Below are positions 1 through 36,194 of a DNA stretch of 64,000 nt, one piece after another. The position numbers and the translations under genes are program-made. Each line of letters begins with the position of its first letter. The first letter of the stretch is position 1. The DNA comes from Gemmatimonadota bacterium (GTDB lineage: Bacteria; Gemmatimonadota; Gemmatimonadetes; Gemmatimonadales; Gemmatimonadaceae): positions 159,478-223,477 of the forward strand of contig JAZKBK010000005.1 of the NCBI GenBank assembly GCA_040388625.1, written 5' to 3'. Below the pieces are notes generated by a model that saw only the letters and a program-made list of their open reading frames with translations, searched no databases and was not told the origin of the DNA.

Positions 1-1559
1 CGCCACGGGATGTTGCGAGCCGTGGCGAGCCATTTCGCGTGCTGGTTGAACATCGAGTCCACGATATGGATGAACGCTTCGTAGCAGGAGAACAGGCCGT
101 GTCTGCCGGTAAGCAGGTATCCCTCCAGCCATCCCTCGCACATGTGCTCGCTCAACACCTCCATCACTCTGCCGTCGGGTGCGACGTGCTCATCGCTCGG
201 CAATATCTCGGCGGTTGACGTGCGATCGGTGACATCGAACAGTGCGTCCAGCCTGTTGGAACTCGTTTCGTCCGGCCCCATGATCCGAAAGTTGCGTGCG
301 CTCATGTTGAGTCGCATTACATCCCGAAGAAACTTGCCGAGCACGCGGGTGGATTCTGCGTCGACGGCTCCCGGCGCCGGTACGCTCACGGCGTAGTCAC
401 GGAAGACCGGCATTGCGAGATCCTTGAGCAGCAGCCCGCCATTGGCATGCGGATTGGCGCTCATGCGGCGTGTGCCTGTGGGCGCGATGCTAGCGATCTC
501 CGGAACGAGTGTGCCATTCTCATCGAACAGTTCTTCGGGGCGGTAGCTCTTCATCCACTGCTCGAGCAATGCGACATGTCCCGGATTATCCTCAAATCCG
601 GTGACCGGTACCTGATGCGAGCGGAACGATCCCTCCGTCTGCTTCCCGTCGACGAACTTGGGGCCCGTCCATCCCTTGGGCGAACGCAGGACTATCATCG
701 GCCATGGAACGCGATGCGTGAAGCCGTGTTCGCGCGCGTCCTGCTGGATGCGCTTGATGTCCGCCAGAACGGTGTCCATGGTGGCGGCCATGAGCTGGTG
801 CATCACGTGTGGGTCGTCGCCGGAGACGAAACGAGGATCGTAGCCGTAGCCTCGCAGCAGCGACGTCAGCTCGTCGTCGCCGATTCGTGCAAGAACGGTC
901 GGACCGGCGATCTTGTAGCCGTTGAGGTGCAGGATCGGAATAACGGCGCCGTCCCGTGCGGGATCGAGGAATTTGTTCGAATGCCAGCTTGTCGCGAGCG
1001 CGCCTGTTTCTGCCTCACCATCCCCGATTGCACAACAGACGAAGAGATCCGGATTGTCGAATACGGCGCCATACGCGTGCAGCAGCGAATATCCCAGCTC
1101 TCCGCCTTCATGGATGGATCCAGGTGTTTCCGGAGCGACGTGACTGGGGATGCCGCCCGGAAACGAGAACTGCTTGAACAGGCGCTGGAGACCAGCGGTG
1201 TCACGACTTACCATCGGATAGATCTCGCTGTACGTCCCCTCGAGGTAGGTGTTGGCGACGACACCAGGTCCGCCGTGGCCTGGACCGGCGATGAAGATCG
1301 CGTCGATGTCGTGCTTCCGGATCAGCCTGTTCATGTGCACGTACATGAAGTTCAGTCCTGGTGTCGTGCCCCAGTGACCGAGCAGCCTGCGCTTTATGTG
1401 GTCGAGGCTCAGCGGTGCGCGCAGGAGAGGATTGGCGAGGAGATAGATCTGGCCGACGGAGAGGTAGTTCGCGGCGCGCCAGTATGCATCGATCAGCCGG
1501 AGTTCATCCGCGGAAAGTGGATTCCGGCTCGGCGTTTCATTCGCAATGACTGTCGTCAT
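1..1559 (-). CDS. xfp: phosphoketolase (xylulose-5-P/fructose-6-P), N-terminal ~519 codons; 3' end lies beyond the window start
   Basis: Own translation of the minus strand from ATG at 1559: [40 protein letters not shown]...GPGHGGPG...[10 protein letters not shown]...[17 protein letters not shown] lies 8 nt upstream. It is absent from the ORF track because there is no stop inside the window. The 382-aa + ORF 447..1595 is its antisense shadow. Confidence 0.9.
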
Positions 1560-1581
1560 GTCGATTGCTCCATGGGAATTG

Positions 1582-1627
1582 CAGGATCAGGATGATCCTG
1601 CCGTCCTGTCAGTGACTGGCAGGACGG
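1582..1627 (-). terminator. two adjacent inverted repeats downstream of the 4-TM gene (possible terminator / operator)
   Basis: CAGGATCA-GGA-TGATCCTG (1582..1600) and CCGTCCTGTCAGT-G-ACTGGCAGGACGG (1601..1627, one G:U). No U-tract. Confidence 0.35.
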
Positions 1628-1678
1628 AATACGCCGATGCAGCGCACGCGACATGCCGCAGGAGTGGCGACGTGCGGG

Positions 1679-2143
1679 TCAGAACCGCTCGCCCTTCGCC
1701 TCGCGTGCCTGACTGCCCACAGGCCGAATTCTTGTCCACATCGTGAAGAAGAAGACCCCGATCGCGATTCCCTGCAGGAAGCCGGCCGCGACGATCGCGA
1801 CGCGCAGCCACATTGCGGAGATGTTGAACAGGCTGGATCGCATTATTTCGCCACCGACCCGCGTGACGGTTCCGATCGTGATCAGCCAGTAAGCGATCGC
1901 GGCCAGTCGCGGATTGTATTGCGCGTCCGTCTTTTCCGGACGCGGAAAGAGCCACAGCGCGACACCCATGATCATCATCATCACGAAGCCGACGAACAGC
2001 GCGTGCGTGTGAGCGCTGACGAGATATTCGTCCGGTGCCGCACCCTGGAATTCCCGGCGCGCGATCAGGTACCCGCCTATCGACAGCCCGACTGCCAGAA
2101 AGGCGATTGCGGTCTTGAGGTAACGGCGGACGAGCGTGTACAC
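1679..2143 (-). CDS. 4-TM membrane protein with HxH..L.GF motif (mini NnrS/haem-copper-oxidase-like module), copy A
   Basis: 154-aa ORF with four hydrophobic helices. TM2 reads AHTHALFVGFVMMMIMGVALWLFPR. It is a paralogue of 14223..14645 and matches the repeat unit of 16268..17674. Confidence 0.75.
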   Translation of the reverse strand: MYTLVRRYLKTAIAFLAVGLSIGGYLIARREFQGAAPDEYLVSAHTHALFVGFVMMMIMGVALWLFPRPEKTDAQYNPRLAAIAYWLITIGTVTRVGGEIMRSSLFNISAMWLRVAIVAAGFLQGIAIGVFFFTMWTRIRPVGSQAREAKGERF

Positions 2144-2163
2144 GTCGCGCTACGCGCCGGCGC

Positions 2164-2233
2164 TCATGCAGCGACGCTCATGCAACTGCATTCATGCAAC
2201 TGCATTCATGCAGCTGCAGTCGTGCGGCCACCT
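2164..2233. repeat. tandem 14-nt repeat, about 5 units (TCATGCAACTGCAT), each unit an ATGCA-NN-TGCAT palindrome
   Basis: Units start at 2164, 2178, 2192, 2206 and 2220. Units 2 and 3 are identical and the outer units are degenerate. Together they fill the 62-nt spacer between the cupin stop (2206-2208) and the 4-TM start (2143). Confidence 0.85.
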
Positions 2234-2568
2234 GGCCTGGGCGTGATCGCCGCCAGTACGACGAATGGACCGCGAGGCGCGCGCATGCCGTGCAATTCGT
2301 TCGGCTCGTAGGTAACGACGCTTCCCGCGGAAACCGTCACGTCCTGTATCTCTCCATTGACCGGTCCGGAGATCACACCGGTGCCGCTGACCACTGAAAG
2401 AACGACGGTAGACGTACTCGTGTGCATGGCCACGCTGTCTTCAGGATTCAGTCGGAAGACGACGAGGCGCACATCTGGCGAGTCGTGCACGATCGCGCTT
2501 GCCGCTCGGCCAACCGACCCGGATACTGCCTTGTCGGCGATCGTCAGGCAGTCGTGTACTTGCATCAT
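2206..2568 (-). CDS. cupin-domain protein
   Basis: Start taken at MMQVHDC (ATG 2568), overlapping the upstream stop as ATGA. The small beta-barrel-like sequence includes VVFRLNPEDSVAMHTSTSTVVLSVVSGTGVISG...YEPNELHGMRA. The longer Arg-rich N-terminus given in the track is rejected. Confidence 0.7.
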   Translation of the reverse strand: MMQVHDCLTIADKAVSGSVGRAASAIVHDSPDVRLVVFRLNPEDSVAMHTSTSTVVLSVVSGTGVISGPVNGEIQDVTVSAGSVVTYEPNELHGMRAPRGPFVVLAAITPRPGGRTTAAA

Positions 2569-2795
2569 ACTGCCATTCCCGTGCTGTGGCGCCGGCCGGC
2601 GACCACTGCGTTCAGTGCGTTCAGCAACGCAGCTGGATCTGCACCGTCCCGCAGGGCGGCGTCCTGAACGGAAGTTGCACCACCGCAACACGCGTCTATT
2701 CCAAACTCGTTGAACACGTTTGTCGTGCCAGGGTGTGACTGTATGACGTCGTTGACGACGGATGCAAAAGTGATGACTTCGTCTTGCAATGACAT
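2565..2795 (-). CDS. ScdA_N (DUF542) domain-only protein, equivalent to the N-terminal domain of YtfE/ScdA di-iron repair proteins without the hemerythrin part
   Basis: Contains the FGIDACCGG motif typical of ScdA/YtfE N-terminal domains. Start is probably ATG 2795 (MSLQDEVITF); a TTG at 2831 is the alternative. Confidence 0.7.
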   Translation of the reverse strand: MSLQDEVITFASVVNDVIQSHPGTTNVFNEFGIDACCGGATSVQDAALRDGADPAALLNALNAVVAGRRHSTGMAV

Positions 2796-3020
2796 GAGTG
2801 ATGTCCGGATTTGATAAATGAATGTAGGCAATTCGCGACCTGATTCAAACTAGAGAACCGGGCGCACCATCGGTGTCAGTGTTTCCCTGAGATGGCGCAA
2901 CCCGTTGCCTGACAAAAAAATCCGGGCTTGCCCGACTGTTTGCGGTGTCCGGCGCCCGTACGTTCATCTCAATGCAGTCACTCACCCGCGCTCCACGCGA
3001 GCCATAAGCGAGGTAGTTGT

Positions 3021-5069
3021 ATGAGATCGTCGGTCAAGCTATATGCGGCTGTCGGGTACGTAGGCATCACCCTGAGCGGCCTCGCGTATGCCTGCGCGCC
3101 GAGTGTCAAGACGAATGCGTCCTCCGGCCTGCTGGCCGGTGACGCCGCGACTCGAACCTACGTGCCGCCAGGTTCGTACGACGAGTATTACGCCTTCCTG
3201 TCGGGCGGCTTCAGCGGCCAGGTGACGGTGTATGGGCTCCCATCCGGTCGTCTTTTCAAGCAAATACCTGTTTTTTCGCAATTTCCACAGACGGGCTACG
3301 GCTACAACGAGGACACCAAGGCGATGCTGACGACGACCTTCGGCCAGGTGCCGTGGGACGACTCGCATCACACGGAGATGTCGCTCACTGATGGCGTCCC
3401 GGATGGCCGCTGGCTGTTCATCAACGGTAACAACACTCCCCGTATAGCCCGTATCGATCTCAAGAAGTTCGAGACCGAGGAGATACTCCAGATTCCAAAC
3501 GCCGCGGGTGGCCACGCGTCACCGTTCGCGACGCCGGATACCAAATACGTGGTGTCGGCGACGCGCTTCAGCGTTCCGATTCCGCAGACCGACGTTCCCA
3601 TCGACAGCTACAAGAAGAACTTCAAGGGAACCATCACGTTCGTCAGAGCCGACCAGCCAGGGAAGATGGACGTCGCCTTCCAGATCATGATGCCGGGATA
3701 CGACTACGATCTCGGGCACGCCGGCAAGGGTCCGTCCGACGGCTGGTTCTTCTTCACGACGTACAACTCCGAAGAAGCGAATACGAAGCTCGAGGTGAAC
3801 GCGTCACAGGCCGACAAGGACTACATCGCCGCGATCAACTACAAGCAGGCGGAGAAGTGCATCGCCGACGGAAAGGGAAAGAAGTTCGGCGGGAGCTACG
3901 TCCACAACTATATGAATCCGGCCACCGGGATCGCGACGAGCGAGACGAAGACCGGTGTGACCATGTTGTATCCAGCCGATTGTGACGGTCTCGTGTACTA
4001 CCTGCCGACGCCGAAATCACCGCACGGTGTCGATATCGATCCGACAGGCGAGTACATAGTTGCCGGTGGCAAGCTGGCTACCGTCATTCCCGTGCACTCG
4101 TACACGAAGATGATCAAGGCGATCGCGGACAAGCAATTCGAGAAGACGATCGACGGAATCCCGGTTCTCCGTTACCAGGCAGTCATTGCAGGCGAAGTAC
4201 AGAAGCCGGGCCTCGGCCCGCTGCACACCGAGTTCGACGGCAAGGGCAACGCCTACACGTCGATGTTCATCTCGTCCGAAATCGTGAAGTGGAAGCTCGG
4301 CACTTGGCAGGTACTGGACCGGATCCCGGTGTACTACTCGGTGGGACACCTGATGATTCCCGGCGGAGACAGCAAGAAGCCGTGGGGCAAATATCTCGTC
4401 GCGCTCGACAAGATCACCAAGGACCGCTACCTGCCCACAGGCCCGGAAGGATCGCGCTCGGCGCAGCTGATCGACATCAGTGGCGACAAGATGAAGATGT
4501 TGCTGGACTTTCCGACCATGGGTGAGCCGCACTACGCGCAGGCAGTTCCGGCGAGCATGCTGCAGCCCACCTCGCTCAAGTTCCAGAAATTGACGGACAA
4601 CCACAATCCGGATGTCACGACTTCGGAAGCCGCTGGCGGAATCACACGCAAGGGCAAGCGCGTCGATGTGAAGATGATTGCGATTCGCAGTCACTTCGCG
4701 CCCGACAATCTGGAGGGAATCGAGCTCGGCGATACAGTGTACTTCCACGTCACCAACATCGAGCAGGACTGGAACATCGCGCACGGGTTCGCCGTGTTCG
4801 GTGCGAACACGTCCGGTGTCACGCTCCCGCCAGGTGAGACGAGGACACTGAGATGGGTTCCACAAGCAACCGGCATCTATCCTTTCTACTGCACGGACTT
4901 CTGCTCCGCGCTGCACCAGGAGATGCAGGGATACGTTCGAGTGTCGGCGCCGGAGATGCACGTTCCACTATCGGCGAACATCAGCAAGATCGCACAGACT
5001 CAGAATGGTCGCATGCCTGCCGAGCGCGGGCAGCACGGCGAGCGTGGCGAACATGGCGAGCACAGGTAG
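3021..5069 (+). CDS. nosZ: nitrous-oxide reductase NosZ, Sec-type signal (clade II-like)
   Basis: CuA motif CTDFCSALHQEM lies near the C-terminus and the body is beta-propeller-like. ATG 3021 is preceded by GAGG. N-terminus MRSSVKLYAAVGYVGITLSGLAYA has no twin-arginine motif. Confidence 0.93.
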   Translation: MRSSVKLYAAVGYVGITLSGLAYACAPSVKTNASSGLLAGDAATRTYVPPGSYDEYYAFLSGGFSGQVTVYGLPSGRLFKQIPVFSQFPQTGYGYNEDTKAMLTTTFGQVPWDDSHHTEMSLTDGVPDGRWLFINGNNTPRIARIDLKKFETEEILQIPNAAGGHASPFATPDTKYVVSATRFSVPIPQTDVPIDSYKKNFKGTITFVRADQPGKMDVAFQIMMPGYDYDLGHAGKGPSDGWFFFTTYNSEEANTKLEVNASQADKDYIAAINYKQAEKCIADGKGKKFGGSYVHNYMNPATGIATSETKTGVTMLYPADCDGLVYYLPTPKSPHGVDIDPTGEYIVAGGKLATVIPVHSYTKMIKAIADKQFEKTIDGIPVLRYQAVIAGEVQKPGLGPLHTEFDGKGNAYTSMFISSEIVKWKLGTWQVLDRIPVYYSVGHLMIPGGDSKKPWGKYLVALDKITKDRYLPTGPEGSRSAQLIDISGDKMKMLLDFPTMGEPHYAQAVPASMLQPTSLKFQKLTDNHNPDVTTSEAAGGITRKGKRVDVKMIAIRSHFAPDNLEGIELGDTVYFHVTNIEQDWNIAHGFAVFGANTSGVTLPPGETRTLRWVPQATGIYPFYCTDFCSALHQEMQGYVRVSAPEMHVPLSANISKIAQTQNGRMPAERGQHGERGEHGEHR

Positions 5070-5070
5070 A

Positions 5071-5679
5071 ATGATGTCACGCCTCACCCGCATGCTCACG
5101 GCGATTGCGTCGCTCGCTCTTGCAGGACTCTTCGTCCTCCCACTGTGGCGCGTACAGCTGGTCGCGCCACAGTACCCGGAGGGACTGGGCATGCGGATCG
5201 GGATCAGCGATGTCCGCGGGACCATGCCGACAGATCTCGACAACATCAATGGTCTGAATCACTACATCGGCATGAAGCACATCACGCCGTCCGCCATTCC
5301 CGAGCTGCGGTACATGCCGTGGATCGTTGCCGCACTGATACTACTCGGGCTCATCGCCGCCAGCGTGGGCAGCAGAAAGTTGCTGCTCACCTGGATCGGC
5401 GGATTCGCCGTCCTTGCAGTTGCTGGACTGGCCGATTTCTGGCGCTGGGAATACGACTACGGCCACAACATCGACTTCGAGCACGCGATAATCAAGATCC
5501 CGGGGATGACGTACCAACCTCCGCTGATAGGCGTGAAACAGCTGCTCAACTTCACGGCGATATCCTGGCCGGATACCGGTGCGTGGCTGGCACTGGCTGC
5601 ATTCGGACTGGGTGTGCTGGCAGTCATCATGACGTTCAGGCAGCGCGTTCCGGCTGCTCAGGAACATGCGCCCTCGTAA
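5071..5679 (+). CDS. nosB: NosB-like integral membrane protein of clade II nos clusters
   Basis: ATG lies 1 nt after the nosZ stop. About 200 aa with several TM helices, placed between nosZ and nosD as in clade II clusters. Confidence 0.6.
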   Translation: MMSRLTRMLTAIASLALAGLFVLPLWRVQLVAPQYPEGLGMRIGISDVRGTMPTDLDNINGLNHYIGMKHITPSAIPELRYMPWIVAALILLGLIAASVGSRKLLLTWIGGFAVLAVAGLADFWRWEYDYGHNIDFEHAIIKIPGMTYQPPLIGVKQLLNFTAISWPDTGAWLALAAFGLGVLAVIMTFRQRVPAAQEHAPS

Positions 5680-6939
5680 GTTGCTGCGCCCCGGCGCAGC
5701 CGCGCTGCTCTTGAGTCTTGGTGCGATCACCACGCCAGGGCTGGCGTCGCCTGTGCGTGCTGCGCAGCAGGTCGTCAACGTGTCGCCGACCGGGCCGGTA
5801 CGCAGCATACGGCAGGCGCTGACGATGGTCGCGCGCGGCGGCACGATCATCGTGCATCCCGGAGTCTACAGGGACACCACGATCGTGGTTTCAATCCCCG
5901 TCACGATCATGGGAGACCGGTATCCGGTCCTCGATGGCGAGAACGTACGCCAGATAATGACCGTGACGGCGGACAGCGTTACTGTGCGCGGCATCGCATT
6001 TCGGAACGTCGGTGTCGCGTTCACGGAAGATCTCGCCGCGATAAAGGTCGTGCGGGCGCGCTACTGCTCGATATCCGACAATCGCATCGACAACGGCTTC
6101 TTCGGCATCTACCTGCAGGAAGCCCAGTACTGTGCGGTGATTCGCAACGTGATACGCGGCACGCACGCGCGGGATGCAACATCCGGCAACGGTATTCATC
6201 TCTGGCATTCGCGCGACATCGTCATCCAGGGAAACCGAGTGTCCGGTCATCGCGACGGAATCTATTTCGAGTTCGTTCGTGAGGCTCACGTTCACGACAA
6301 TCTCAGCACGGGAAACCTGCGGTACGGCCTGCACTTCATGTTCTCCGACAGCTGCGATTACGAAGGCAATACCTTCCGGCGCAACGGTGCCGGTGTGGCG
6401 GTCATGTACACGCACAACGTGCGGATGGTGGGTAACCACTTCACCGATAACACCGGCTCGGCCGCATACGGCTTGCTGCTCAAGGAGATATCCGACAGCG
6501 AGCTCAGGGACAACATCTTTTCCGGTAATACGTCGGGGCTGTACGCAGATGGAGCCACGCGGCTGAATGCGCATCACAACACCTTTCTAAACAACGGCTG
6601 GGCGCTCAAGCTCCAGTCCAGCACCGAAGATGCCACATTCACGGCCAACAACTTCGCTGGCAACACGTTCGATGTGAGCACCAATAGTCGCTCGGCACAC
6701 TCGACCTTTCGCGGTAATTACTGGTCCGAGTATCAGGGATACGATCTCAACCGCGACGGTGTAGGAGATGTGGCGTACCGTCCGGTACGGCTCACGTCCG
6801 TCGTGGTAGCGAGATATGAGCCTGCGCTCATCCTGCTACGCAGCAACTTCCTTTTGTTGATGGACGCCGCGGAGCGAGTGCTGCCGGCTCTCACACCTGA
6901 AACGCTGGCCGACTCCGCGCCCGCGATGCGATGGGTAAA

Positions 6940-6943
<4 letters not shown>
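5666..6943 (+). CDS. nosD: NosD, periplasmic parallel beta-helix protein for CuZ assembly
   Basis: Signal peptide plus repeated beta-helix turns (NRIDNGFFGIYL, GNRVSGHRDGIYF, GNTFRRNGAGVAVM...). Position directly before nosF-nosY. Confidence 0.88.
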
Positions 6944-7667
<724 letters not shown>

Positions 7668-7671
<4 letters not shown>

Positions 7672-8456
7672 ACACCATGATGAAGGTTCTCAAGTATCAG
7701 GCGAGAGACGCCATCCGCAGTCGGTGGTTGATTGCCTATGCGCTGTTCTTCCTGGTGGTGACCGACGCGCTGCTGCGCTTCAGTGGCGATCCGGTAAAGG
7801 CTCAGCTGAGCCTCGTGAGTATCGTCCTCTTCGTCGTTCCGCTGGTCGCCATCGTGTTTGGAACCGTATACCTCTACAACGCACGGGAGTTCGTCGAGCT
7901 GATTCTCGCACAGCCTGTCGATCGTCGTCAGACGTACTGCGGCCTCTATCTCGGCCTCACACTTCCGCTGATCGTAACCTTTGTCGTCGGTCTTGCGCTG
8001 CCATTCGCCTTGAACGGACTCGACGCGTTGGCCTGGGGCAGGCTCGCAGCGCTCCTCGTTGCCGGAACCGTCCTGACGTGTGTATTCACAGCAATCGCGA
8101 CGTCGATCGCCGTGAAGTGCGAGGACCGGCTGCGCGGCCTCGGAGCCGCGATCGGAGTGTGGCTGCTCGTTACCATCGTGTACGACGGATTCGTGTTGCT
8201 GGTACTGGCGGTGCTATCGGATTATCCGCTGGAGCGTGCGACGCTCGGACTGATGATGGCCAACCCGATCGACATCGCACGGGTCGGCCTGCTGCTGAGA
8301 TTCGACGGGGCCGCGATGATGGGTTACACCGGCGCCGTATTCCTCAAGTTCTTCAGTGGCTCGTCTGGAATGGTCGTCGCCACGCTTGCGCTGACGGCCT
8401 GGATCATCGCACCGATCGCGTTCGGGGTGCGCGTGTTCCAGAGGAAGGACTTCTGA
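7668..8456 (+). CDS. nosY: NosY, ABC-2 type permease
   Basis: 262 aa with about 6 TM helices. ATGA overlap with the nosF stop and GGGAGG upstream. Confidence 0.85.
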
Positions 8457-8519
8457 TCCGTAGTCAGAAGCACAGCAAGCACGGAAACTGCAAAAACAAC
8501 AATCTTACCGGATGCAATC

Positions 8520-8975
8520 GTGAATCGTTCAGGTCTCAAGTCGAGCTTTGTCGTACTCTCCCTATTAGTGATCGGCGCGTGTGGGGGCGGGGAAAAGAAG
8601 GGAGAGAGCGAGGCGGGAGCTCCAGCGTCTTCGTCGCAGTCGTCGTCCCCGAGTGGCGACGTGGCTGCTCCGACTGGAAAAGTGGTGGTCGTCGAGCTCA
8701 ACAGCGACGCGCAGGGCAACTATTTCAAGCCTGCGAAATTCGAAGTGCATCGCGGTGACGTGATCCGGTTCACTCTGAAGAGCGGAGTGCATAACGTGCA
8801 CTTCCTGCCTGATTCCAATCCCGGCAAGACAAACCTCCCTCCGGCGAGTGATTTCCTTCAGCTGCCGGATCAGACTCTGGATGTCCCCGTCAACCTGGCA
8901 CCGGGAAAGTACTATTTTCAGTGTGATCCACACGCAGCGCTGGGGATGCACGGATACGTGGAGGTAGAACGCTGA
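8520..8975 (+). CDS. plastocyanin-like type-1 cupredoxin lipoprotein
   Basis: Lipobox LLVIGAC. T1 Cu ligands GVHNVHF ... CDPHAALGM, with the C-x2-H-x4-M spacing of plastocyanin. GTG start. Confidence 0.85.
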   Translation: MNRSGLKSSFVVLSLLVIGACGGGEKKGESEAGAPASSSQSSSPSGDVAAPTGKVVVVELNSDAQGNYFKPAKFEVHRGDVIRFTLKSGVHNVHFLPDSNPGKTNLPPASDFLQLPDQTLDVPVNLAPGKYYFQCDPHAALGMHGYVEVER

Positions 8976-8995
8976 AGGCAAGTGCCACCGATGAG

Positions 8996-10870
8996 GTGCG
9001 ACGGAGCAAGGTCACCAACTGGTACAATTCTCCGGCTGTAATTCCCGGCCTGGCGACGGCCTTTGTCCTGGGTGGTCTCGCGGCATGGATCCTCAGGTTA
9101 CCCGTATGGGCCCATCACATATGGATGGCTGGGCTGGTTGCGGGTGGTGCAATCGTCGTGACGGGCACCATCCGCGGTGCGCTGCACGGCAGGTGGGCGT
9201 CGGACATCGTCGCGGCCATGGCGATCGTCACATCTGTCGTCATGGACCAGCCCCTGGCCGGCCTCATCGTGGTGGTAATGCAAACTGGCGGCGAGGCGCT
9301 CGAGCGATATGCGGAGGGTCGAGCATCGCGTGCGGTTCAGGAGCTCGAGGCGGATCGTCCCAAATCAGCCCACGTTCTGCGCGGCGGCGAAGTATCCGAT
9401 ATCAGAGCAGACGAGATTGTCGTCGGCGACAGGGTAATCGTACGCGCCGGCGAACTGATACCGTGCGACGGAATCGTCGAAGAGGGTAGATCCGAGCTCG
9501 ACACATCAAGGCTCACCGGTGAATCGCTGCCGCAGTCGATCGAGCCGGGCGTACCGGTCAGTAGCGGAAGCATCAACGGCGATCGGTTGTTCACGATGCG
9601 CGCCACTGCGATCGCCGAGGCCAGTCAGTATGAGCGCATCGTGCAGCTCGTTCGGGCGGCACTGGAAACCAAGGCGCCGTTTCAACGGATCGCGGATCGC
9701 TACGCCGTCTGGTTCACGCCAATCACGCTCGTGGTAGCTGTTGTCGCGGCGGCAACCACGGGAGACTATCAGAGATTCCTGGCGGTGCTCGTCGTCGCGA
9801 CACCATGCCCCCTCATACTCGCCCCGCCGATCGCGATAATCGGGGGAATCAATCGTGCGGCCCGGCGTCAGATAATCGTGCGCAACGGCGCGGCAATCGA
9901 GCGACTCGCGACCGCCAATGTTGCCGTGCTCGACAAGACCGGCACACTGACGATCGGAAAGCCCGTAGTTCATGCAGTCATTCCACATCCACCATTCTCG
10001 CGCGCAGACGTATTGCGTCTGGCCGGCGCCGTGGAGCAGGGCGCCGCCCATCTGCTCGCACGTACACTCACCGACGCAGCGAAGGCGGAGAATGCGTCTC
10101 TACCACCCGTTCGGGATGTCGTTGAAGCTCCCGGCCGCGGCGTCACCGGGAGTATCGGCGACGATACGGTGATGGTCGGCTCGCACGGTTTCATTGCTGA
10201 GCGTCTGACGCTGGACGCCGATAACTCGATTCCCGAGGATTCCTCCGTCGGACTCAAGGCGTATGTCGCGATCAATGGAAGATTCGCTGGCGTGGTGGCA
10301 TACGACGAGCAGCTGCGAGAGAGCGTGCCAGCAATTCTCTCCGATCTCGAGTCACTCGACATTCCACGCGTCCTGCTGCTGTCAGGCGATCACGGTGACA
10401 ATGCCCGTGCGATAGCAAAGTCGCTCGGCATTACCGAAGTTCGCGGCGATATGAAACCGGGAGACAAGGTTGATGTAGTAAAGGAGTTGACCGCAGCGGG
10501 TGCTCGCGTTCTGATGGTGGGTGACGGCACCAACGATGCACCGGCGTTGAGCGCCGCAACCGTCGGAATAGCGCTCGCAGGTCACGGCGGCGGTGTCACT
10601 GCGGAGGCAGCCGATCTCGTGATTCTGGTCGACGATCTGGGCCGCGTACCCGAAGCGATTCGCATCAGTCGCCACAGCATGAAGATCGCACGAGAAAGCG
10701 TCTGGGCCGGACTTGGGCTCAGTGGAATCGCAATGCTGTTCGCGGCCGCTGGCAAGATCGCGCCAGTGCCCGGCGCGCTGCTTCAGGAAGTGATCGACAT
10801 CGCGGTGATAATCAACGCACTACGCGCCAGTGCTGGCCCGCGACGACCCGTTCAGCGACCCATCAAGTAA
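8996..10870 (+). CDS. heavy-metal P1B-type ATPase with TPCP transmembrane motif (P1B-5-like); no N-terminal metal-binding domain and no hemerythrin domain
   Basis: Motifs LTGESLP, VATPCPLILAPP, DKTGTLT and GDGTNDAP. 624 aa, GTG start. Confidence 0.85.
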   Translation: MRRSKVTNWYNSPAVIPGLATAFVLGGLAAWILRLPVWAHHIWMAGLVAGGAIVVTGTIRGALHGRWASDIVAAMAIVTSVVMDQPLAGLIVVVMQTGGEALERYAEGRASRAVQELEADRPKSAHVLRGGEVSDIRADEIVVGDRVIVRAGELIPCDGIVEEGRSELDTSRLTGESLPQSIEPGVPVSSGSINGDRLFTMRATAIAEASQYERIVQLVRAALETKAPFQRIADRYAVWFTPITLVVAVVAAATTGDYQRFLAVLVVATPCPLILAPPIAIIGGINRAARRQIIVRNGAAIERLATANVAVLDKTGTLTIGKPVVHAVIPHPPFSRADVLRLAGAVEQGAAHLLARTLTDAAKAENASLPPVRDVVEAPGRGVTGSIGDDTVMVGSHGFIAERLTLDADNSIPEDSSVGLKAYVAINGRFAGVVAYDEQLRESVPAILSDLESLDIPRVLLLSGDHGDNARAIAKSLGITEVRGDMKPGDKVDVVKELTAAGARVLMVGDGTNDAPALSAATVGIALAGHGGGVTAEAADLVILVDDLGRVPEAIRISRHSMKIARESVWAGLGLSGIAMLFAAAGKIAPVPGALLQEVIDIAVIINALRASAGPRRPVQRPIK

Positions 10871-12279
10871 TCGATGACGTCGGACGCGGTGTACGTCGTA
10901 CGCGTGCCGAGGAAGTTCTGAATACCAAGCAGATCATCACCGCTCGTCAGCAGCGGCGGCTCCTCGATTCCGCCACCTCGCACCTGCGCCTGCCCGATGT
11001 TCGCTGTCAGTCCGTTGCAGAGACATTCACGACCCTCTGTGTCCGCGAGCGCGCCGCCCTTCTTGACGTACGCGTCCACCGGCTCGGCGGGACAGCGATA
11101 TCCAATGCGGCCATCCGCATCGCGATAGGCAGTGCGCAGATAGCCGAGATCGCATTTACGCTCACGACGCGGCCCGTCGGCGTTGTCGCCGACCCATCGC
11201 ACGACCTTGAAGGGATATCCTGTTGGCGACGCACGCGGATCCGTCACCACATCCAGGTCTCCCAGCGCTGCATGGGCCAGGACTTCCTTCTTGAGCGACT
11301 CAGCGATGCCAGATTCCTCGCAGTACGCGAATAGCGTTCCGACCTGAACGCCGGCCGCACCGGCGACAAGCGCGTCAACGAGTGCTTTCGGTGATCCGGC
11401 GCCACCCGCGATCCAGAACGGCAGACCGAGCTCGGCGATGCGTGCGATGTCGACGACGTCGCGCTCTCCATAGATCGGCTCGCCCCGCTCGTTCAGCTTC
11501 TGTTCACCTCTCGGTGGCGCGTTGTGGCCACCTGCGGTCGGACCTTCCACCACGAAACCATCCACGCGGCCGTTCGCCTTTCTGGCAAGCGTGGCTGCAA
11601 GCGACGTCGCCGCCACGATGGCGATGAATTTCGGCCGCTTCATCGGCATCGACTGGTCGACACCATGAGCCGCGGGATCGAAACTGAGAATTTCGGACTC
11701 CCCGGCCGGCATTCCCTCGACGTCGAATTTCATCGATGCAGTGCGATGCTCGGAGAGCGCGTCCAGCACGCCGGGGATCTCACGTGGGATTCCAGCGCCC
11801 ATCAACACGTAATCCACGCCAGCGAGCATTGCACCGCACAGCGACGCCAGATTTGGCAGCTGTACCTTGGCGAGAAGATTGACGCCGACCAATCCGTCGT
11901 GGCCTTCCCTGGCCAGATACACTTCGACGAAATTCGCGAGCATCGTGACCTGCTGGCGCGCGACGCTGACGTGTTGCTTGTACATCGGAAGCATCTTGTA
12001 CGGCTGAGCTGCTGCGCGACCATTCGGAAGGAAGTAGCGCTTGAGCGCATCCTCACCGACGTGGGCGATCGGAAAATGCTCGATCGCTCGCCGTATGTGT
12101 CCACCCGGATCGCCGTCCTGGAGTCGGCGCACGAAAACCGTATCGAGCGCAGTTCCCGAAACGACGCCAAGATGACCGGCGCGCGCAACGGCGCGCGCCA
12201 GAGGCCAGTTTGAAACACCGACTCCCATTCCACCCTGAATGATGGTCGGAAGCATGATGTTGCGCGGTACGGTAGTCAT
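10852..12279 (-). CDS. nitronate monooxygenase (2-nitropropane dioxygenase) family flavoprotein, long form
   Basis: N-terminus IIQGGMGVGVSNWPLARAVARAGHLGVVSG and TIM-barrel FMN-type motifs (PFWIAGGAGSP). The 3' end overlaps the ATPase 3' end by 19 nt (convergent). Confidence 0.75.
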   Translation of the reverse strand: MTTVPRNIMLPTIIQGGMGVGVSNWPLARAVARAGHLGVVSGTALDTVFVRRLQDGDPGGHIRRAIEHFPIAHVGEDALKRYFLPNGRAAAQPYKMLPMYKQHVSVARQQVTMLANFVEVYLAREGHDGLVGVNLLAKVQLPNLASLCGAMLAGVDYVLMGAGIPREIPGVLDALSEHRTASMKFDVEGMPAGESEILSFDPAAHGVDQSMPMKRPKFIAIVAATSLAATLARKANGRVDGFVVEGPTAGGHNAPPRGEQKLNERGEPIYGERDVVDIARIAELGLPFWIAGGAGSPKALVDALVAGAAGVQVGTLFAYCEESGIAESLKKEVLAHAALGDLDVVTDPRASPTGYPFKVVRWVGDNADGPRRERKCDLGYLRTAYRDADGRIGYRCPAEPVDAYVKKGGALADTEGRECLCNGLTANIGQAQVRGGGIEEPPLLTSGDDLLGIQNFLGTRTTYTASDVIDYLMGR

Positions 12280-12316
12280 GCGGTGGGAAGTTACGGTTGG
12301 CTGCTTCTGCGTTCAG

Positions 12317-12346
12317 TCGGGGTAAGCTGGAAATATCGTAAAGGAA
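12317..12346 (-). promoter_or_regulatory. conserved upstream motif, copy 1 (shared with the nirK upstream region)
   Basis: TCGGGGTAAGCTGGAAAT-atc-GTAAAGGAA lies 38-67 nt upstream of the NMO-family ATG. It matches 29031..29048 at 17 of 18 positions, and the second 9-mer is identical to the one in the nirK copy. Confidence 0.5.
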
Positions 12347-12359
12347 TCCCCGACCATCA

Positions 12360-14156
12360 TCACTTGCGCGACGGATCTGGCGCCGCCGTAAATACGAACG
12401 TTTTGACTATCGCGAATGCAAACAGCACGAGCAACACCGACTGAAGGGCAGTAGTCTCGACCGTGGGGAACACTCCCAGCCACGAAATGTCGGGTACGTG
12501 CGGCAACGGCGTCATCGGCAGCACGTTACCCTCCTGCAATTCCCGTATTCCGCGACCCGCGAACACGAACGCCATGTAGTACAACAGCAGGCTGGTTGCC
12601 GCGAAGAACGTCCGCATCGGAATCTTTACACCGAACCGGTAGAACAGCACGAATACGATGCCCAGCGCGACGGAGCCTGTGACAATTCCCAGCGTGAGCG
12701 GCAGCGCCGCGCCGTGTGCCTGACTGAACAGCGCCTGATAGAAGAGAGCTGTCTCTGCGCCCTCGCGGTACACCGCAAGGAATGCGATGAGCATCAATGC
12801 TCCGCCACTACCTTGCTCCAGCGCCAACGACACCTTCTCTCTGATGAACTTCTGCCATTTGTGCGCTTCGACCTTGGAGATCAGCCAGTAGCTGACGGAG
12901 AAGAGCACCACGACTGCAACCAGCAGCGATACCGCTTCGACGATTTCGCTGCTCGCTGGAATCGCGGCGAGCGCAGTCTTGAGGATCACCGCTGTTATCG
13001 CGCTGGCGACGACACCGAGTGCCGCGCCGATCCAGATGGAGCGCAACCGTTTACGGTTTCCGGTCTTGATGAGAAACGCGACTACGGCACCCACAACGAG
13101 TATCGCTTCGAATCCTTCTCTGAGGATTATGATGAACGATTGCCAGAACATCGTCACGGCACCTTCGTCACTTCCATTTGCGAGCGCCACCGCGCGCGGT
13201 AGTGTGTCTGCGATCTCGTTGCGAGCACGAGTCGCCGCAGCCGTATCACCGCCGCGCACGGCGACCCTGAACTCGCCGAACAAGCGCTCCAACAATGAAA
13301 CCAGTCGGGGGTCCTTCGCGCGCACGACAGTTTCGAGCGGCTCGAAGGCGAGATACGCGTCGAACGCTCCGTCGCTTGCCGTGGCGGCGTTTCCGCGCCT
13401 CGCCGATGCGAGCGAGCTGTCAAGCAATGCGACTATCGAGGCCGCGGTGCTGCTGGCACCGGCTCCAGCGCCGGCAGCCTGCGACGGGAGTGGCATCGGC
13501 TGTCCGCGCAGCTGGTACACATAGTTCACTACCTCCCATCGCTGCTGAGGAGTGAGCGATTCCCCGAACGGCGGCATGGCGGTGCCGTTGATGCCGACCG
13601 ACGTCACATTGTACGCAAGCGTCGGAGTCAGATTCGGGGTGCCCGCCGCGCTTCCGATCGCCGGCACAGCCGTGGACAGAGTCCGCGCCACGGGTCCGTC
13701 GCCGAGCCCGCGCGAGCCATGGCACGAAGCGCAGCTTTCCGTGAAAATCTGTCGCCCGACGGCGGTATCGAGTGGTGCGGACGGCAGCTCCAGTGCAGCT
13801 GCATCGCCCAGGGCCGAAAGCAACGAGGCCCGGTATTGCTCCAGAGCCGCCGGCGGTCGTTTCTGCTTCACGGCGTCGATCAGTTCCTGGAGTGCCGCGC
13901 TGGCGGCCGGAGCGTCCCGTCCCTCCAATCGGCCCGCGACCTCACTGGCGTTTTCCAGGAATCCGGCGACCTCGGCGTACTCCTCCGCCGAGATAAGCTG
14001 GCCTCGCTTGTCGACCGCCAGCCCGTACTCGGAGACTGCGACCGATACGATGCTCGCCAACCTTCTGGCGGCCGTATCCTGGGATCTCATGGTCGCTGGC
14101 GTAAGCCATAGTGAGGCGAGGGCGCAAAGGCACCCTACCCGCCGCTTGCAGTTCAT
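12360..14156 (-). CDS. cytochrome c - FTR1 (high-affinity iron permease) fusion protein
   Basis: N-terminal signal, haem-binding CASCH plus distal MPPF, then a 7-TM FTR1 part with two REGxE motifs (ILREGFEAIL, VYREGAETAL). Confidence 0.85.
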   Translation of the reverse strand: MNCKRRVGCLCALASLWLTPATMRSQDTAARRLASIVSVAVSEYGLAVDKRGQLISAEEYAEVAGFLENASEVAGRLEGRDAPAASAALQELIDAVKQKRPPAALEQYRASLLSALGDAAALELPSAPLDTAVGRQIFTESCASCHGSRGLGDGPVARTLSTAVPAIGSAAGTPNLTPTLAYNVTSVGINGTAMPPFGESLTPQQRWEVVNYVYQLRGQPMPLPSQAAGAGAGASSTAASIVALLDSSLASARRGNAATASDGAFDAYLAFEPLETVVRAKDPRLVSLLERLFGEFRVAVRGGDTAAATRARNEIADTLPRAVALANGSDEGAVTMFWQSFIIILREGFEAILVVGAVVAFLIKTGNRKRLRSIWIGAALGVVASAITAVILKTALAAIPASSEIVEAVSLLVAVVVLFSVSYWLISKVEAHKWQKFIREKVSLALEQGSGGALMLIAFLAVYREGAETALFYQALFSQAHGAALPLTLGIVTGSVALGIVFVLFYRFGVKIPMRTFFAATSLLLYYMAFVFAGRGIRELQEGNVLPMTPLPHVPDISWLGVFPTVETTALQSVLLVLFAFAIVKTFVFTAAPDPSRK

Positions 14157-14222
14157 ATCCGATAAAAACTATCGGGTTACACTTGTACCGCTACTGCGGG
14201 CCTGTCCGGCCGCGAGGCCGCT

Positions 14223-14645
14223 TCAGACAGGGGTGGCTCCGGGCCGCCGCCGGGCGCCGTCGATGGTCCGCCAGATATTGTATACAAAACAGTATGCTGC
14301 GACGGCTGCCAGGACGCCTCCCGTGCCCAGCACGAACGGCGCAGCCGGCACTGCATTTGGCGCGAGGCAGAAGCCGATCACCATCAGCGCCAGACCTGCA
14401 TTGGCGAGCCACCATTGCACAGCTGCCACGCTCCGATTGTGCAACGGATGGCCAGTGAAACGCGGAATTACATGATATGCGACACCGTAAATCATCATCG
14501 TCACAAAGCCCAGCAGATTCATGTGAACGTGCGCAGGCCGGTAGATAATGAGTTGCGGATGCACGGCCATGGCGACACCAAGCGTTACGCCGAGTGCGAG
14601 CCAGGTGATGCTTGCCTTGAGAAACGCCTTTACGAACCACTCCAT
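14223..14645 (-). CDS. 4-TM membrane protein with HxH..L.GF motif, copy B
   Basis: 140 aa; TM2 reads AHVHMNLLGFVTMMIYGVAYHVIPRF. It aligns along its whole length with 1679..2143. Confidence 0.75.
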   Translation of the reverse strand: MEWFVKAFLKASITWLALGVTLGVAMAVHPQLIIYRPAHVHMNLLGFVTMMIYGVAYHVIPRFTGHPLHNRSVAAVQWWLANAGLALMVIGFCLAPNAVPAAPFVLGTGGVLAAVAAYCFVYNIWRTIDGARRRPGATPV

Positions 14646-14809
14646 TTACACAATTGCGTGTGAGTGAGATACATCTGCTGCTTGTGACGCAACTTACGTG
14701 GACGAGGAATTGATCGGTGTCGGCGTTTCCCTGAAGTGAGCGCGGCGATCTCCCGACACGGAATCCTGCGTCAGCGCACCGTGGCAGAACTTCTTTGTTC
14801 TGGTCTTCT

Positions 14810-15058
14810 CTAATCCCGGGCTGCGTCGACTGGGGCGAGCAAGGCTGTCCACAATCCTACGCGCTCGGCTGTAATCGCGTTTGGCGGCTCGAGCCGGTAC
14901 CGTGTGGGAACAGAACCGATCGGCCAACCAGCGAGGTAATCCTGTACTGTACCGGACACACCACTCCCACGCGCTTCCCGGACTGCGCGCGTGGGGTAGT
15001 GCACCATGATCTCTCCGCCACGAGCGGTGTAGCCAAGTCCCGTGGAATCAATCAGCAT
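14810..15058 (-). CDS. hypothetical 82-aa protein (weak call)
   Basis: The only sizeable same-strand ORF in the 434-nt gap of the operon. It starts 21 nt after the DUF2249 stop. No recognisable motif, and third-position GC looks lower than in neighbouring genes. Confidence 0.25.
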   Translation of the reverse strand: MLIDSTGLGYTARGGEIMVHYPTRAVREARGSGVSGTVQDYLAGWPIGSVPTRYRLEPPNAITAERVGLWTALLAPVDAARD

Positions 15059-15079
15059 ACGAGAACCTTGCGCTGACGA

Positions 15080-15334
15080 TCACTTCCGGGCAATCTGCAC
15101 GCGCCAGATTTCCGGTCCCTGTGCCTGATACGTCCACTCGAAAGTACCGGGATGCTCCGCTTCGAGCTGATACCGAAGCGGACGCGGATCGTGGTCGTTG
15201 ATGAGAATCATCGACTCCCCTTTCTTGAGACCCTCGAACGCGCGGAAGATGGTGGGATGCTTGTCGCGCGGAGGAATGACGCGAACGTCGAGCTCTATCG
15301 GGCTGGTGGACTGTGCTGCAGTTGACTGTGACAC
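15080..15334 (-). CDS. DUF2249 domain protein
   Basis: 84 aa: ELDVRVIPPRDKHPTIFRAFEGLKKGESMILINDHDPRPLRYQLEAEHPGTFEW, the typical single-domain DUF2249 pattern. Confidence 0.8.
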   Translation of the reverse strand: MSQSTAAQSTSPIELDVRVIPPRDKHPTIFRAFEGLKKGESMILINDHDPRPLRYQLEAEHPGTFEWTYQAQGPEIWRVQIARK

Positions 15335-15389
15335 GTATTACTCCTGATAGGAAAATTGGTATCTGTCGTTAATGGTGTGATTTCGCCTG

Positions 15390-25411: not shown

Positions 25412-25541
25412 GCGTCCATCCCGTGTGCGAAATGGGCAGAGCTCGAAGTGGTGATGCACGGACCATTTCGGCAGTGCCTCCGACGCAGTCTAGGACGATG
25501 GACGGTCGCTTGATGTGACTTATGTCACGTTTCGCGAGTAC

Positions 25542-36018: not shown

Positions 36019-36194
36019 CCTTACCTCCAATAGGCGATTTTCTTCAGGGCGATTCCGCGCGTGGCCGCTCAACCCGGAAGCTACAGCGCGCAGGCTGGCG
36101 GCGACAGCTGTTCCCGGGGGATACCTTTATAGCCGGGTATCACAGGGTTCCACGCAATCACCAACATCCGTCCTGGACAAACCGTAAGCTTGCT

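Follow-up and report, generated by a model that had tools for sequence, protein, structure and literature searches.

A nosL-less clade II nitrous oxide reductase cluster in a Gemmatimonadaceae bacterium, with a lipoprotein cupredoxin proposed as electron donor

Gene content of the nos cluster

We analysed a 64 kb stretch of DNA (henceforth the window) in which seven genes lie on the + strand at positions 3021–10870, in the order nosZ, nosB, nosD, nosF, nosY, a cupredoxin gene and a P1B ATPase gene. They are spaced, in this order, by a gap of 1 nt, overlaps of 14, 13 and 4 nt, and gaps of 63 and 20 nt. The identities and order given in the initial annotation were confirmed by profile matches (NosZ and NosD above curated cutoffs) and by the NosB motifs, and its description of a single strand with tiny gaps or overlaps also held, none exceeding 63 nt. 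The same gene order was found in independent assemblies, metagenome contigs included (L001, L002, L006, L087, L090–L092). A simple consensus scan of the + strand detected no terminator-like sites between the nosY, cupredoxin and ATPase genes, and we infer that the last two are co-transcribed with nosZDFY.

The first gene, nosZ (3021–5069, +), has a GAGG 6–9 nt 5' of its ATG at 3021 and encodes a clade II, Sec-exported N2O reductase. Its product scored 909 bits against TIGR04246 (cutoff 625) versus only 367 bits against the Tat-type model, and the N-terminus (MRSSVKLYAAVGYVGITLSGLAYAC) is devoid of an RR motif, in agreement with the Sec signal originally described. It also matches nos_propeller (E = 3e-35) and contains the CuA motif CTDFCSALHQEM and DSHH, the copper-ligand motifs being intact. 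Given that the signal peptide ends in a Cys kept in all relatives, NosZ may be a lipoprotein, and it is probably lipid-anchored.

Directly downstream, nosB (5071–5679, +; start uncertain, 5005–5074) encodes a polytopic membrane protein of the kind usually found in clade II clusters. It matched no Pfam or NCBIfam model and carries LNHYIGM and YGHN, published conserved stretches of NosB (PMC9697520). A homolog (41–97% identity) sits directly 3' of nosZ in every related locus covering this position. The maturation genes comprise nosD (5666–6943, +), for a periplasmic beta-helix protein (TIGR04247, 414 bits, cutoff 300; PF05048, E = 8e-38), and two genes for the remainder of the NosDFY complex, the ABC ATPase gene nosF (6931–7671, +; ABC_tran PF00005, E = 6e-28) and the ABC-2 permease gene nosY (7668–8456, +; ABC2_membrane_2 PF12679, E = 9e-13). 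Both nosF and nosY are syntenic in all related loci that cover their position. The cluster is a genuine N2O-reductase operon of a soil-type Gemmatimonadaceae bacterium; that it is a functional clade II operon belongs to a broader explanation that we consider, as a whole, reasonably probable (see below).

Loss of nosL

An HMM for NosL, built from 41 relatives and run over all frames of the 64 kb, gave no match (best E = 12). When the ~55 called genes, which cover the window apart from a few short inter-gene stretches, were scanned against Pfam and NCBIfam, no NosR, ApbE/NosX or NosG/H-type protein was detected. The reported absence of nosL, nosR, nosX, nosG and nosH from the cluster thus extends to all scanned genes of the 64 kb. 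We compared the window with 80 related nos loci, of which 46 cover both flanks fully. Lack of nosG, nosH, nosR and nosX, initially presented as a special feature, turned out to be common to these relatives: none of the 80 has space for such genes between nosB and nosY (one, L074, holds an unrelated insert there).

The situation of nosL is different. In 41 of the 80 loci it lies between nosB and nosD, and not after nosY, the intervening gene of these relatives matching PF05573 (nosL). In the window nosD overlaps the nosB stop by 14 nt and therefore leaves no room for it. We infer that nosL was deleted in this lineage, and it may also be absent genome-wide. Such losses have occurred at least six times, only inside the clade that carries the cupredoxin, and never among 23 loci of the cytochrome c type. 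With the losses restricted in this way, the cupredoxin, or some other factor specific to the clade, could still have a copper-related role.

In its fullest form that role would make the cluster a self-contained copper route, with the cupredoxin doubling as, or replacing, the NosL donor and the ATPase exporting Cu(I) for CuA/CuZ. The missing nosL and the confinement of its losses to cupredoxin-bearing clusters speak for this model. Against it, 13 loci carry nosL and the cupredoxin gene together, and the two genes occupy different positions. For the same reasons the cupredoxin is not filling the slot normally held by NosL, as had been proposed.

Another reading of the same absence is that the cluster is a decaying, non-functional remnant, deprived of both nosL and an electron-input module. 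It has indeed been reported that most N2O reducers have nosL and that recombinant systems need it for copper loading (PMC8457098). However, a nosL mutant reduces N2O normally under copper sufficiency (PMC7558416), the NosZ copper ligands are intact, and the seven genes are complete and tightly packed, with 63–98% protein identity among nosL-less lineages from many independent genomes and metagenome contigs. We give decay hardly any credence.

The cupredoxin and its apparent exchange with cytochrome c

The gene at 8520–8975 (+) encodes a lipoprotein type-1 cupredoxin (PF00127, 44 bits, cutoff 21.2), made up of a signal peptide with the lipobox-like sequence LVIGAC, the lipobox Cys21, a disordered Ala/Ser/Pro/Gly linker of ~30 residues and a plastocyanin-like domain. 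Its scores against the plastocyanin and pseudoazurin equivalog models and the halocyanin model do not reach the cutoffs. Neither Cys21 nor any of the ligands His91, Cys135, His138 and Met143 varies among 40 homologs. In an AF2 model the domain has a pLDDT of ~90 and the linker <50, and the best structural matches of the predicted structure are plastocyanins and pseudoazurins. A closed, invariant His/Cys/His/Met site is that of electron carriers, and the linker has no Met/His/Cys-rich copper-binding motif; both features argue against the cupredoxin as a copper donor.

A survey of nos neighbourhoods for such lipoproteins, as suggested originally, placed the cupredoxin gene after nosY in 39 related loci, regardless of the flanking genes. 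The 46 fully covered loci fall into two sets: 29 carry the cupredoxin gene 3' of nosY, and in the other 17 a gene for a lipoprotein monoheme class I cytochrome c immediately precedes nosZ. No locus has both genes or lacks both. Such a cytochrome c gene upstream of nosZ is found in Bacteroidota, Ignavibacteria, Calditrichia, Zixibacteria, Rhodothermales and two Gemmatimonadales-labelled MAGs (L060, L064). On the NosZ tree this exclusivity traces to one branch and hence to one evolutionary event, so that the Fisher test (p = 6e-13) overstates the evidence; it looks like one swap at the base of a Gemmatimonadales NosZ clade. The two proteins share a layout of lipobox, low-complexity linker of 25–45 residues and small redox domain.

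This pattern supports an electron-donor role for the cupredoxin. Electron donation to clade I N2O reductase by pseudoazurin is well established. For haloarchaea, halocyanins and azurins have been put forward as the proteins that supply NirK and NosZ (PMC11218638). We propose that the cupredoxin is a dedicated electron donor to NosZ; the initial annotation had raised this role, and it gains comparative support from the exclusivity, the conserved type-1 site and the predicted fold.

Neighbouring genes and other possible partners

The window also encodes a NirK-like two-domain multicopper protein (27916–28935; TIGR02376, 192 bits, below cutoff), a CtaD-type oxidase subunit and CueO-like multicopper oxidases, any of which the cupredoxin could serve, a point against the electron-donor reading. 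Pseudoazurins serve several denitrification enzymes in proteobacteria. The cupredoxin might be a general carrier for a NirK-type nitrite reductase or a terminal oxidase, with NosZ fed by an unlinked cytochrome c, and a 98%-identical sister contig does have a lipoprotein cytochrome c gene 5.2 kb upstream of nosZ, in a region outside the window. That protein, however, whose linker is Met-rich, is encoded by the first gene of a TolC/MFP efflux operon, an indication of metal efflux rather than of a link to nos. The cupredoxin gene, moreover, follows nosZBDFY at its 3' end in 39 of 39 loci, whatever flanks them, and its distribution is the exact complement of that of the nos-linked cytochrome c. 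On balance we regard the general-carrier role as doubtful.

The cluster itself encodes no cytochrome c, as first noted. The further statement that none lies next to it was not fully accurate, given the sister-contig gene and an opposite-strand gene 1.5 kb downstream of the cluster (12360–14156), in which a c-type cytochrome domain is fused to an FTR1 iron permease. We found no quinol-oxidising input complex in the window.

A small 4-TM protein (1679–2143, −; PF00115, 40 bits; weak NnrS and DUF2871 matches) resembles the N-terminal helices of heme-copper oxidase subunit I and NnrS, and in many loci a member of its family is the immediate neighbour of the cupredoxin gene or of nosZ. A paralog, also a small COX1/NnrS-like 4-TM protein, is encoded at 14223–14645 (−; PF00115, 34 bits, just under cutoff; family HMM E = 6e-65). 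Genes associated with iron or nitric oxide stress are numerous in the neighbourhood (DUF2249, DUF1858, Mrp/NUBPL, DUF59, FTR1).

A P1B-5-type ATPase

Starting 20 nt 3' of the cupredoxin stop, the last gene (8996–10870, +) encodes a heavy-metal P-type ATPase of the P1B-5 type (TIGR01525, 493 bits, cutoff 346). It has the motifs VVATPCPLILA (TPCP), DKTGT and LLQEVID (QExxD), and lacks a CPC motif, an N-terminal HMA (metal-binding) domain and a C-terminal hemerythrin domain. Over its full length it is 40% identical to a Nia-like ORF of Sinorhizobium meliloti pSymA with the same motifs and a hemerythrin domain (PF01814), which we take to be Nia. Only one P1B-5 enzyme, to our knowledge, has been characterised for its substrate. 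Those listed for Nia and P1B-5 are Ni2+ and Fe2+ (PMC7558416 Table 4; PMC4932525). The ATPase is probably an exporter of the Fe2+/Ni2+ class co-expressed with nos.

Copper export for CuA/CuZ, the function first suggested, did not hold up. The absence of a CPC motif and of a metal-binding domain leaves a copper-supply role unsupported, the score on the IB1_Cu model TIGR01511 (338) is below its cutoff (397), and the protein groups with the Ni/Fe-type P1B-5 pumps. In favour of the copper route, ATPases of this kind are repeatedly found close to nos clusters: in Gemmatimonadales, P1B-5-like enzymes are encoded within 10 kb of nosZ in at least four different arrangements, S. meliloti pSymA has one at such a distance as well, and 13 of the 16 scorable loci with a nos-linked ATPase have nosL-less clusters. 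Against this, many nosL-less clusters have no ATPase within their flanks (e.g. L010, L018, L019, L022, L024, L030, L032). Taken together with the nosL and cupredoxin evidence, we consider the copper-supply model quite improbable. The recurrence near nos is nonetheless more than a casual neighbourhood, and a stress-efflux function does not explain it in detail. Homologs on Rhodobacterales plasmids have an iron-type context (PepSY, a ferric reductase-like protein, VIT), and in Ensifer they adjoin a universal stress protein gene.

Proposed mechanism

Our preferred explanation, a nos operon with a cupredoxin donor, a lost nosL and a P1B-5 stress-efflux pump, is one that we hold, in all its parts together, with a little more than even confidence. 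NosZ would be Sec-exported and probably lipid-anchored; NosDFY would mature it, and NosB would be the clade II membrane component. The cupredoxin, the product of the final dedicated gene, is lipid-anchored and tethered by its linker, and most likely shuttles electrons one at a time from the respiratory chain in the membrane to the CuA of NosZ; its own source would be a quinol-oxidising complex encoded elsewhere, and it would stand in for the lipid-anchored monoheme cytochrome c whose gene immediately precedes nosZ in related lineages. With nosL deleted, copper presumably reaches NosD/NosZ by a path in which no cluster-encoded chaperone takes part, much as in nosL mutants under copper sufficiency. 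The ATPase is most likely a metal efflux pump for low-oxygen or nitrosative stress, co-expressed with N2O respiration, rather than a copper feeder.

Relationship to known systems

The ATPase shares the P1B superfamily architecture of the CopA/CtpA/FixI-type P1B-1 Cu(I) pumps and differs from them in the absence of CPC and of the N-terminal HMA and in its below-cutoff TIGR01511 score. LpCopA is among its three best PDB matches (253 bits), along with the Co/Zn-type sCoaT (256 bits) and ZntA (234 bits), so that it is equally distant from all three. With S. meliloti Nia it has in common the transmembrane motifs VLVxATPCPLILA and GALLQExIDI, 40% identity over the pump core and proximity to nos genes (the pSymA ATPase gene is 8.7 kb upstream of nosZ); unlike Nia, it has no C-terminal hemerythrin domain and appears to be in one operon with nos.

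As a whole, the cluster resembles the Bacteroidota-type clade II arrangement (cytochrome c, nosZ, nosB, nosL, nosD, nosF, nosY) in NosZ subclade (61–68% identity), Cys-ending Sec-type signals, nosB directly 3' of nosZ, the nosDFY order and the absence of nosR/nosX and nosG/nosH. It differs in lacking the upstream lipoprotein cytochrome c and nosL and in adding the lipoprotein cupredoxin after nosY and the P1B-5 ATPase. The loci of the Gemmatimonas aurantiaca type (L020, L023, L026, L038) are also similar: in them nosD, nosF and nosY are likewise followed by an orthologous cupredoxin gene, and no cytochrome c precedes nosZ-nosB. They differ in that nosL is still present between nosB and nosD and that no P1B-5 ATPase adjoins the cluster, L038 having an SPC-type ATPase in its place. 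Finally, the pseudoazurin/cytochrome c550 donors of clade I and the haloarchaeal halocyanins offer the parallel of a small type-1 copper protein of similar fold proposed to reduce the CuA of NosZ (PMC11218638). The cupredoxin of the window differs from them in being lipid-anchored via a long linker and encoded inside a clade II nos operon, and in its sequence and C-x2-H-x4-M loop pattern it is closer to plastocyanin than to the pseudoazurin and halocyanin donors.

Organization of the nos operon

Seven tightly packed genes on the + strand form the nos operon (3021–10870), in the order and with the identities proposed by the initial annotation: nosZ (3021–5069), nosB (5071–5679), nosD (5666–6943), nosF (6931–7671), nosY (7668–8456), a cupredoxin gene (8520–8975, 151 residues) and a P1B ATPase gene (8996–10870, 624 residues). 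The successive junctions are a gap of 1 nt, overlaps of 14, 13 and 4 nt, and gaps of 63 and 20 nt, and a simple scan of the + strand found no terminator-like site in the intervals between the last three genes, from nosY on. The NosZ clearly belongs to the Sec-dependent clade II type, scoring 909 bits against TIGR04246 (cutoff 625) versus 367 bits, under the cutoff, for the Tat-type model TIGR04244. Its N-terminus as read in translation (MRSSVKLYAAVGYVGITLSGLAYAC) has no twin-arginine (RR) motif, the ligand motifs of CuA and CuZ (CTDFCSALHQEM and DDSHH) are both present, and GAGG lies a few nucleotides before the ATG. The nosB ORF had no Pfam or NCBIfam match; its product contains both LNHYIGM and YGHN, which are conserved NosB stretches (PMC9697520), the gene begins 1 nt past the nosZ stop, and a homolog follows nosZ in all related loci that cover this position. 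NosD was identified with TIGR04247 (414 bits, cutoff 300). Given that NosF- and NosY-specific models do not exist, the assignment of the ABC ATPase (PF00005) and the ABC-2 permease (PF12679) to nosF and nosY rests on synteny.

Searches for regulatory signals found no FNR/CRP-type palindrome 5' of nosZ, no sigma-70-like promoter in 2000–12500 and no Rfam family in 1–16000. There is a conserved non-coding block 5' of nosZ (~2872–2940), common to the window and seven related nos loci (L004, L005, L069 and L008–L011), that reads GTGTCAG..TTTCCCTGAG..CCTGACA, an A-run and ATCCGGG.TTGCCCGACT; within it are a GC hairpin and the inverted repeat TGTCAG/CTGACA, and neither an FNR-type box nor a match to any Rfam family was found.

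One genome per species was scanned, which gave 80 loci with NosZ relatives. An exact-sequence look-up of the window NosZ returned no match. The closest relative (98% identical) comes from a MAG labelled Gemmatimonadetes and most other loci are labelled Gemmatimonadaceae or Gemmatimonadales, while the distant ones (61–68% identity) belong to Bacteroidota, Ignavibacteria, Calditrichia, Zixibacteria and Rhodothermales. The identical cupredoxin sequence was found in three other assemblies with its neighbours unchanged. Metagenome contigs, one of them 385 kb long, keep the gene order too, around homologs that are less closely related.

Cupredoxin and cytochrome c at nos loci

Several features identify the sixth gene product as a type-1 (blue) cupredoxin of the plastocyanin/azurin family. 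It matches PF00127 with 44 bits (cutoff 21.2), and the copper ligands H91, C135, H138 and M143, spaced C-x2-H-x4-M, are invariant in 40 homologs. The AlphaFold2 model (pLDDT ~90 over residues 51–150, with a disordered linker at 22–44) found plastocyanins and pseudoazurins as its best PDB matches in Foldseek (E from 4e-9), with TM-scores to plastocyanins of 0.74–0.84 when normalised by target length. The protein falls under the equivalog cutoffs of plastocyanin (TIGR02656, 47 against 88), pseudoazurin (TIGR02375, 32 against 110) and halocyanin (TIGR03102, 21 against 94), and so represents a separate subfamily. Judged from sequence only, it has a lipobox-like LLVIGAC whose Cys21 is invariant in the 40 homologs and in the loci; no Met/His/Cys-rich copper-binding motif was found in the linker. 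A second cupredoxin paralog (30% identical) lies downstream of the P1B-5 ATPase gene in two related loci (L008:13747–14256 and L063:20241–20834), and in the former a universal stress protein gene separates the nos cupredoxin gene from the ATPase gene.

Clustering of all ORFs of the loci revealed a family of ~170-residue proteins with one CXXCH, encoded directly upstream of nosZ in 23 loci and recognised by Pfam as class I cytochromes c. They share with the cupredoxin an architecture of lipobox, low-complexity linker and small redox domain. Among the 46 loci in which both flanks are covered, 17 carry only the cytochrome c and 29 only the cupredoxin; none carries both and none lacks both. On a neighbour-joining tree of NosZ the cupredoxin loci form one clade, a pattern best read as a single putative replacement of cytochrome c by cupredoxin at the base of a Gemmatimonadales lineage. 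Since the tree shows a single transition, a Fisher test on the cytochrome c/cupredoxin table is descriptive only and does not count as independent evidence.

The complementary occurrence, the tethered build that both have and an unvarying place in the operon speak for a common function of cupredoxin and cytochrome c. Pseudoazurin is an accepted donor to the clade I N2O reductase. In haloarchaea copper proteins have been proposed as donors (PMC11218638). On this evidence the cupredoxin is a reasonably probable dedicated electron donor to the CuA site of NosZ. In NosZ itself a Cys closes the signal peptide in every member of the subclade (all loci L004–L083), as LSGLAYAC in the window (N-terminus at 3021–3095) and as LGSC, LSGC or ITGC in Bacteroidota. 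Because of this conserved Cys, NosZ too is probably a lipoprotein, as with NosL and with either partner (cytochrome c or cupredoxin), which suggests that NosZ and its partners may form an assembly tethered to the membrane surface.

Other electron-transfer and metal genes around the operon

Among the ~55 genes of the window scanned with Pfam and NCBIfam, none was found for bc1, alternative complex III, NosR or NosGH. The scan likewise detected no domain of the NosR/NosX electron module of clade I or of the NosG/NosH/NosC1/C2 module of Campylobacterota-type clade II (FMN_bind/4Fe-4S membrane protein, ApbE, NapG/NapH-like or multi-heme cytochrome c). That nosR, nosX and nosG/H are absent had been correctly noted before, and is normal in this NosZ subclade. 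A 4 kb insert in the related locus L074 was considered as a NosG/H module and rejected, as the genes in it are those of CtaA, YwiC and a beta-eliminating lyase.

The claim that no cytochrome c gene lies nearby holds only in part. At 12360–14156 (−) a cytochrome c domain is fused to an FTR1 iron permease, and 5.2 kb upstream of nosZ the 98%-identical sister contig (L006), which extends past the left edge of the window, encodes a lipoprotein cytochrome c whose linker is Met-rich (MGGGAMGSRMGSMSMMG). Its gene is the first of an operon with TolC-like and membrane-fusion (MFP) genes (L006:1498–4746 (−)) that looks like a Cus-like metal efflux system, and neither of the two cytochromes looks dedicated to nos.

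More generally, the neighbourhood of nos encodes DUF2249, DUF1858, Mrp/NUBPL and DUF59 proteins, the cytochrome c-FTR1 permease and a Crp/Fnr regulator. The DUF2249 proteins, one of them with DUF1858 and TusA-like parts, the Mrp/NUBPL Fe-S carrier and the DUF59 protein are found at 15080–15334 (−), 15390–16178 (−), 17671–18783 (−) and 27254–27565 (+); in Haloferax, denitrification induces DUF2249 genes (PMC11218638). At 13–18 kb from the operon there are a divergent NirK-like two-domain copper protein (27916–28935 (−); TIGR02376 192 bits, below the cutoff of 296), the Crp/Fnr regulator (25542–26291 (−)) and a stand-alone CtaD-type oxidase subunit I (23522–25459 (−)), and the region has the look of an island devoted to denitrification and low oxygen. 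Other copper-related genes of the window encode a CopD-domain membrane protein (35991–37136 (+)) and a CueO-like multicopper oxidase (46254–47891 (+)) followed by a weak cytochrome c-like ORF (47911–48603 (+)).

Two small proteins with four transmembrane segments, encoded at 1679–2143 (−) and 14223–14645 (−), resemble part of heme-copper oxidase subunit I and NnrS. Similar COX1/NnrS-like proteins recur at the nos clusters of related loci (L011, L017–L019, L022, L024, L030, L034, L042, L045, L047, L053, L054 and L072), where their genes immediately follow the cupredoxin gene, immediately precede nosZ or, in an Ignavibacteria locus, come after nosY. They are possible accessory or electron-input candidates.

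The P1B-5 ATPase

The last gene of the operon encodes a P1B ATPase (TIGR01525, 493 bits) with the motifs VVATPCPLILA, DKTGT and LLQEVID. The solved structures that match it best represent three other subgroups and are equidistant from it (256 bits for sCoaT, 253 for LpCopA and 234 for ZntA). It is 40% identical to an ORF of S. meliloti pSymA which we take to be Nia, the characterised P1B-5 pump, and the motifs of the two are identical; they differ in that only the pSymA protein has a C-terminal hemerythrin domain (PF01814), no hemerythrin-like domain being found in the window ATPase, whose chain stops 20 residues past the last helix. The PCP signature has reportedly been assigned to P1B subgroup 5 by Arguello in 2003 and Smith in 2014. 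PCP is a listed P1B signature (PMC4932525), and a hemerythrin-like domain is present in only some P1B-5 pumps (PMC9388753). From these sequence features the ATPase is assigned to P1B-5 and not to the P1B-1 Cu(I) type (CopA/FixI/CtpA). The initial annotation had suggested that it may export copper, an idea that finds no support, given a score against the Cu-type model TIGR01511 of 338, under the cutoff of 397, the absence of an HMA domain and a CPC motif from the protein, its TPCP-type motifs and its resemblance to Nia, for which Ni2+ and Fe2+ have been reported as substrates (PMC4932525, PMC7558416, PMC9388753).

Pumps of the TPCP type recur near nos. Their genes immediately follow the cupredoxin gene in the clade of the window and immediately precede nosZ in L014–L017; in L008 and L063 they are 2–3 kb downstream, and they lie within 3–7 kb in L029, L052, L055–L057 and L064, the last a locus of the cytochrome c type. 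On pSymA itself (L086, positions 625001–675000 of the plasmid) the hemerythrin-bearing P1B-5 ATPase gene (L086:12292–14787) lies 8.7 kb upstream of a clade I nosZ (L086:23068–24876), so this neighbourhood is not confined to Gemmatimonadales. Elsewhere, an ATPase homolog adjoins a universal stress protein gene in Ensifer canadensis, and on Rhodobacterales plasmids homologs are part of an operon with PepSY, ferric-reductase-like, ApbE and VIT genes. The ApbE (NosX-family) neighbour was considered as a nos link and rejected, as PepSY, the ferric reductase-like protein and VIT mark the operon as iron-type. We infer that the pump may be a metal exporter for low-oxygen or nitrosative stress, co-regulated with N2O respiration. 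Its recurrent linkage with nos, seen both in Gemmatimonadales and on Sinorhizobium pSymA, offers a clue to what this poorly understood class of pumps does physiologically.

Repeated loss of nosL

Many relatives have a gap of 500–900 nt between nosB and nosD, with an ORF for a lipoprotein matching NosL (PF05573, E 1e-13 to 3e-9). A custom NosL HMM built from the gap sequences of 41 relatives was positive in 41 loci, invariably between nosB and nosD. Run against all frames of the 64 kb window, the same HMM gave no NosL (best E = 12); nosB and nosD overlap there, so that the gene has been cleanly removed. As this is the site of nosL, the cupredoxin gene does not occupy the NosL slot, contrary to what had been suggested, and 13 loci carry both genes. 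Of the others, 26 have the cupredoxin only, 18 have nosL only, and none lacks both.

When mapped on the NosZ tree, nosL is kept in 23/23 loci of the cytochrome c type, and at least six branches, all inside the cupredoxin clade, have lost it separately. Clusters that lack nosL have intact, well-conserved genes. Loss of nosL need not abolish function, because a Paracoccus nosL mutant shows normal N2O reduction when copper is sufficient (review PMC7558416). Within the cluster, the repeated losses show that the supposedly near-universal nosDFYL set is not obligatory. Their confinement to the cupredoxin clade could reflect the ecology of the lineage, an unlinked nosL or an alternative copper route specific to the clade. 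One version of the last, which we regard as improbable, is that NosL became dispensable after the swap and was lost repeatedly, with the copper of NosZ being loaded via the cupredoxin, a copper-acting P1B-5 pump or the flanking small COX1/NnrS-like proteins. If true, a major group of N2O consumers in soil would reduce N2O with a periplasmic module that uses copper throughout and no heme, and whose maturation follows a pathway not known before.

Relation to known N2O reductase systems

Gemmatimonadota are among the most abundant soil carriers of clade II nosZ, and the electron supply of clade II enzymes outside Campylobacterota is still largely unknown. An operon-encoded, membrane-tethered cupredoxin, exclusive of a nos-linked cytochrome c, is a testable candidate for the last electron-transfer step. 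Were it the donor, this branch would need copper in place of heme, a point relevant to the limitation of N2O consumption by copper availability. In the literature searched we found no description of a nos-linked cupredoxin or plastocyanin in gemmatimonads, of nosL loss at the level of the cluster or of P1B-5 linkage, any of which may have been published before. Copper proteins as donors to NosZ are already known in principle; what sets this system apart is the exchange of cytochrome for cupredoxin across a whole clade of Gemmatimonadales, together with nosL having repeatedly dropped out of the cluster and the linkage to a P1B-5 pump.
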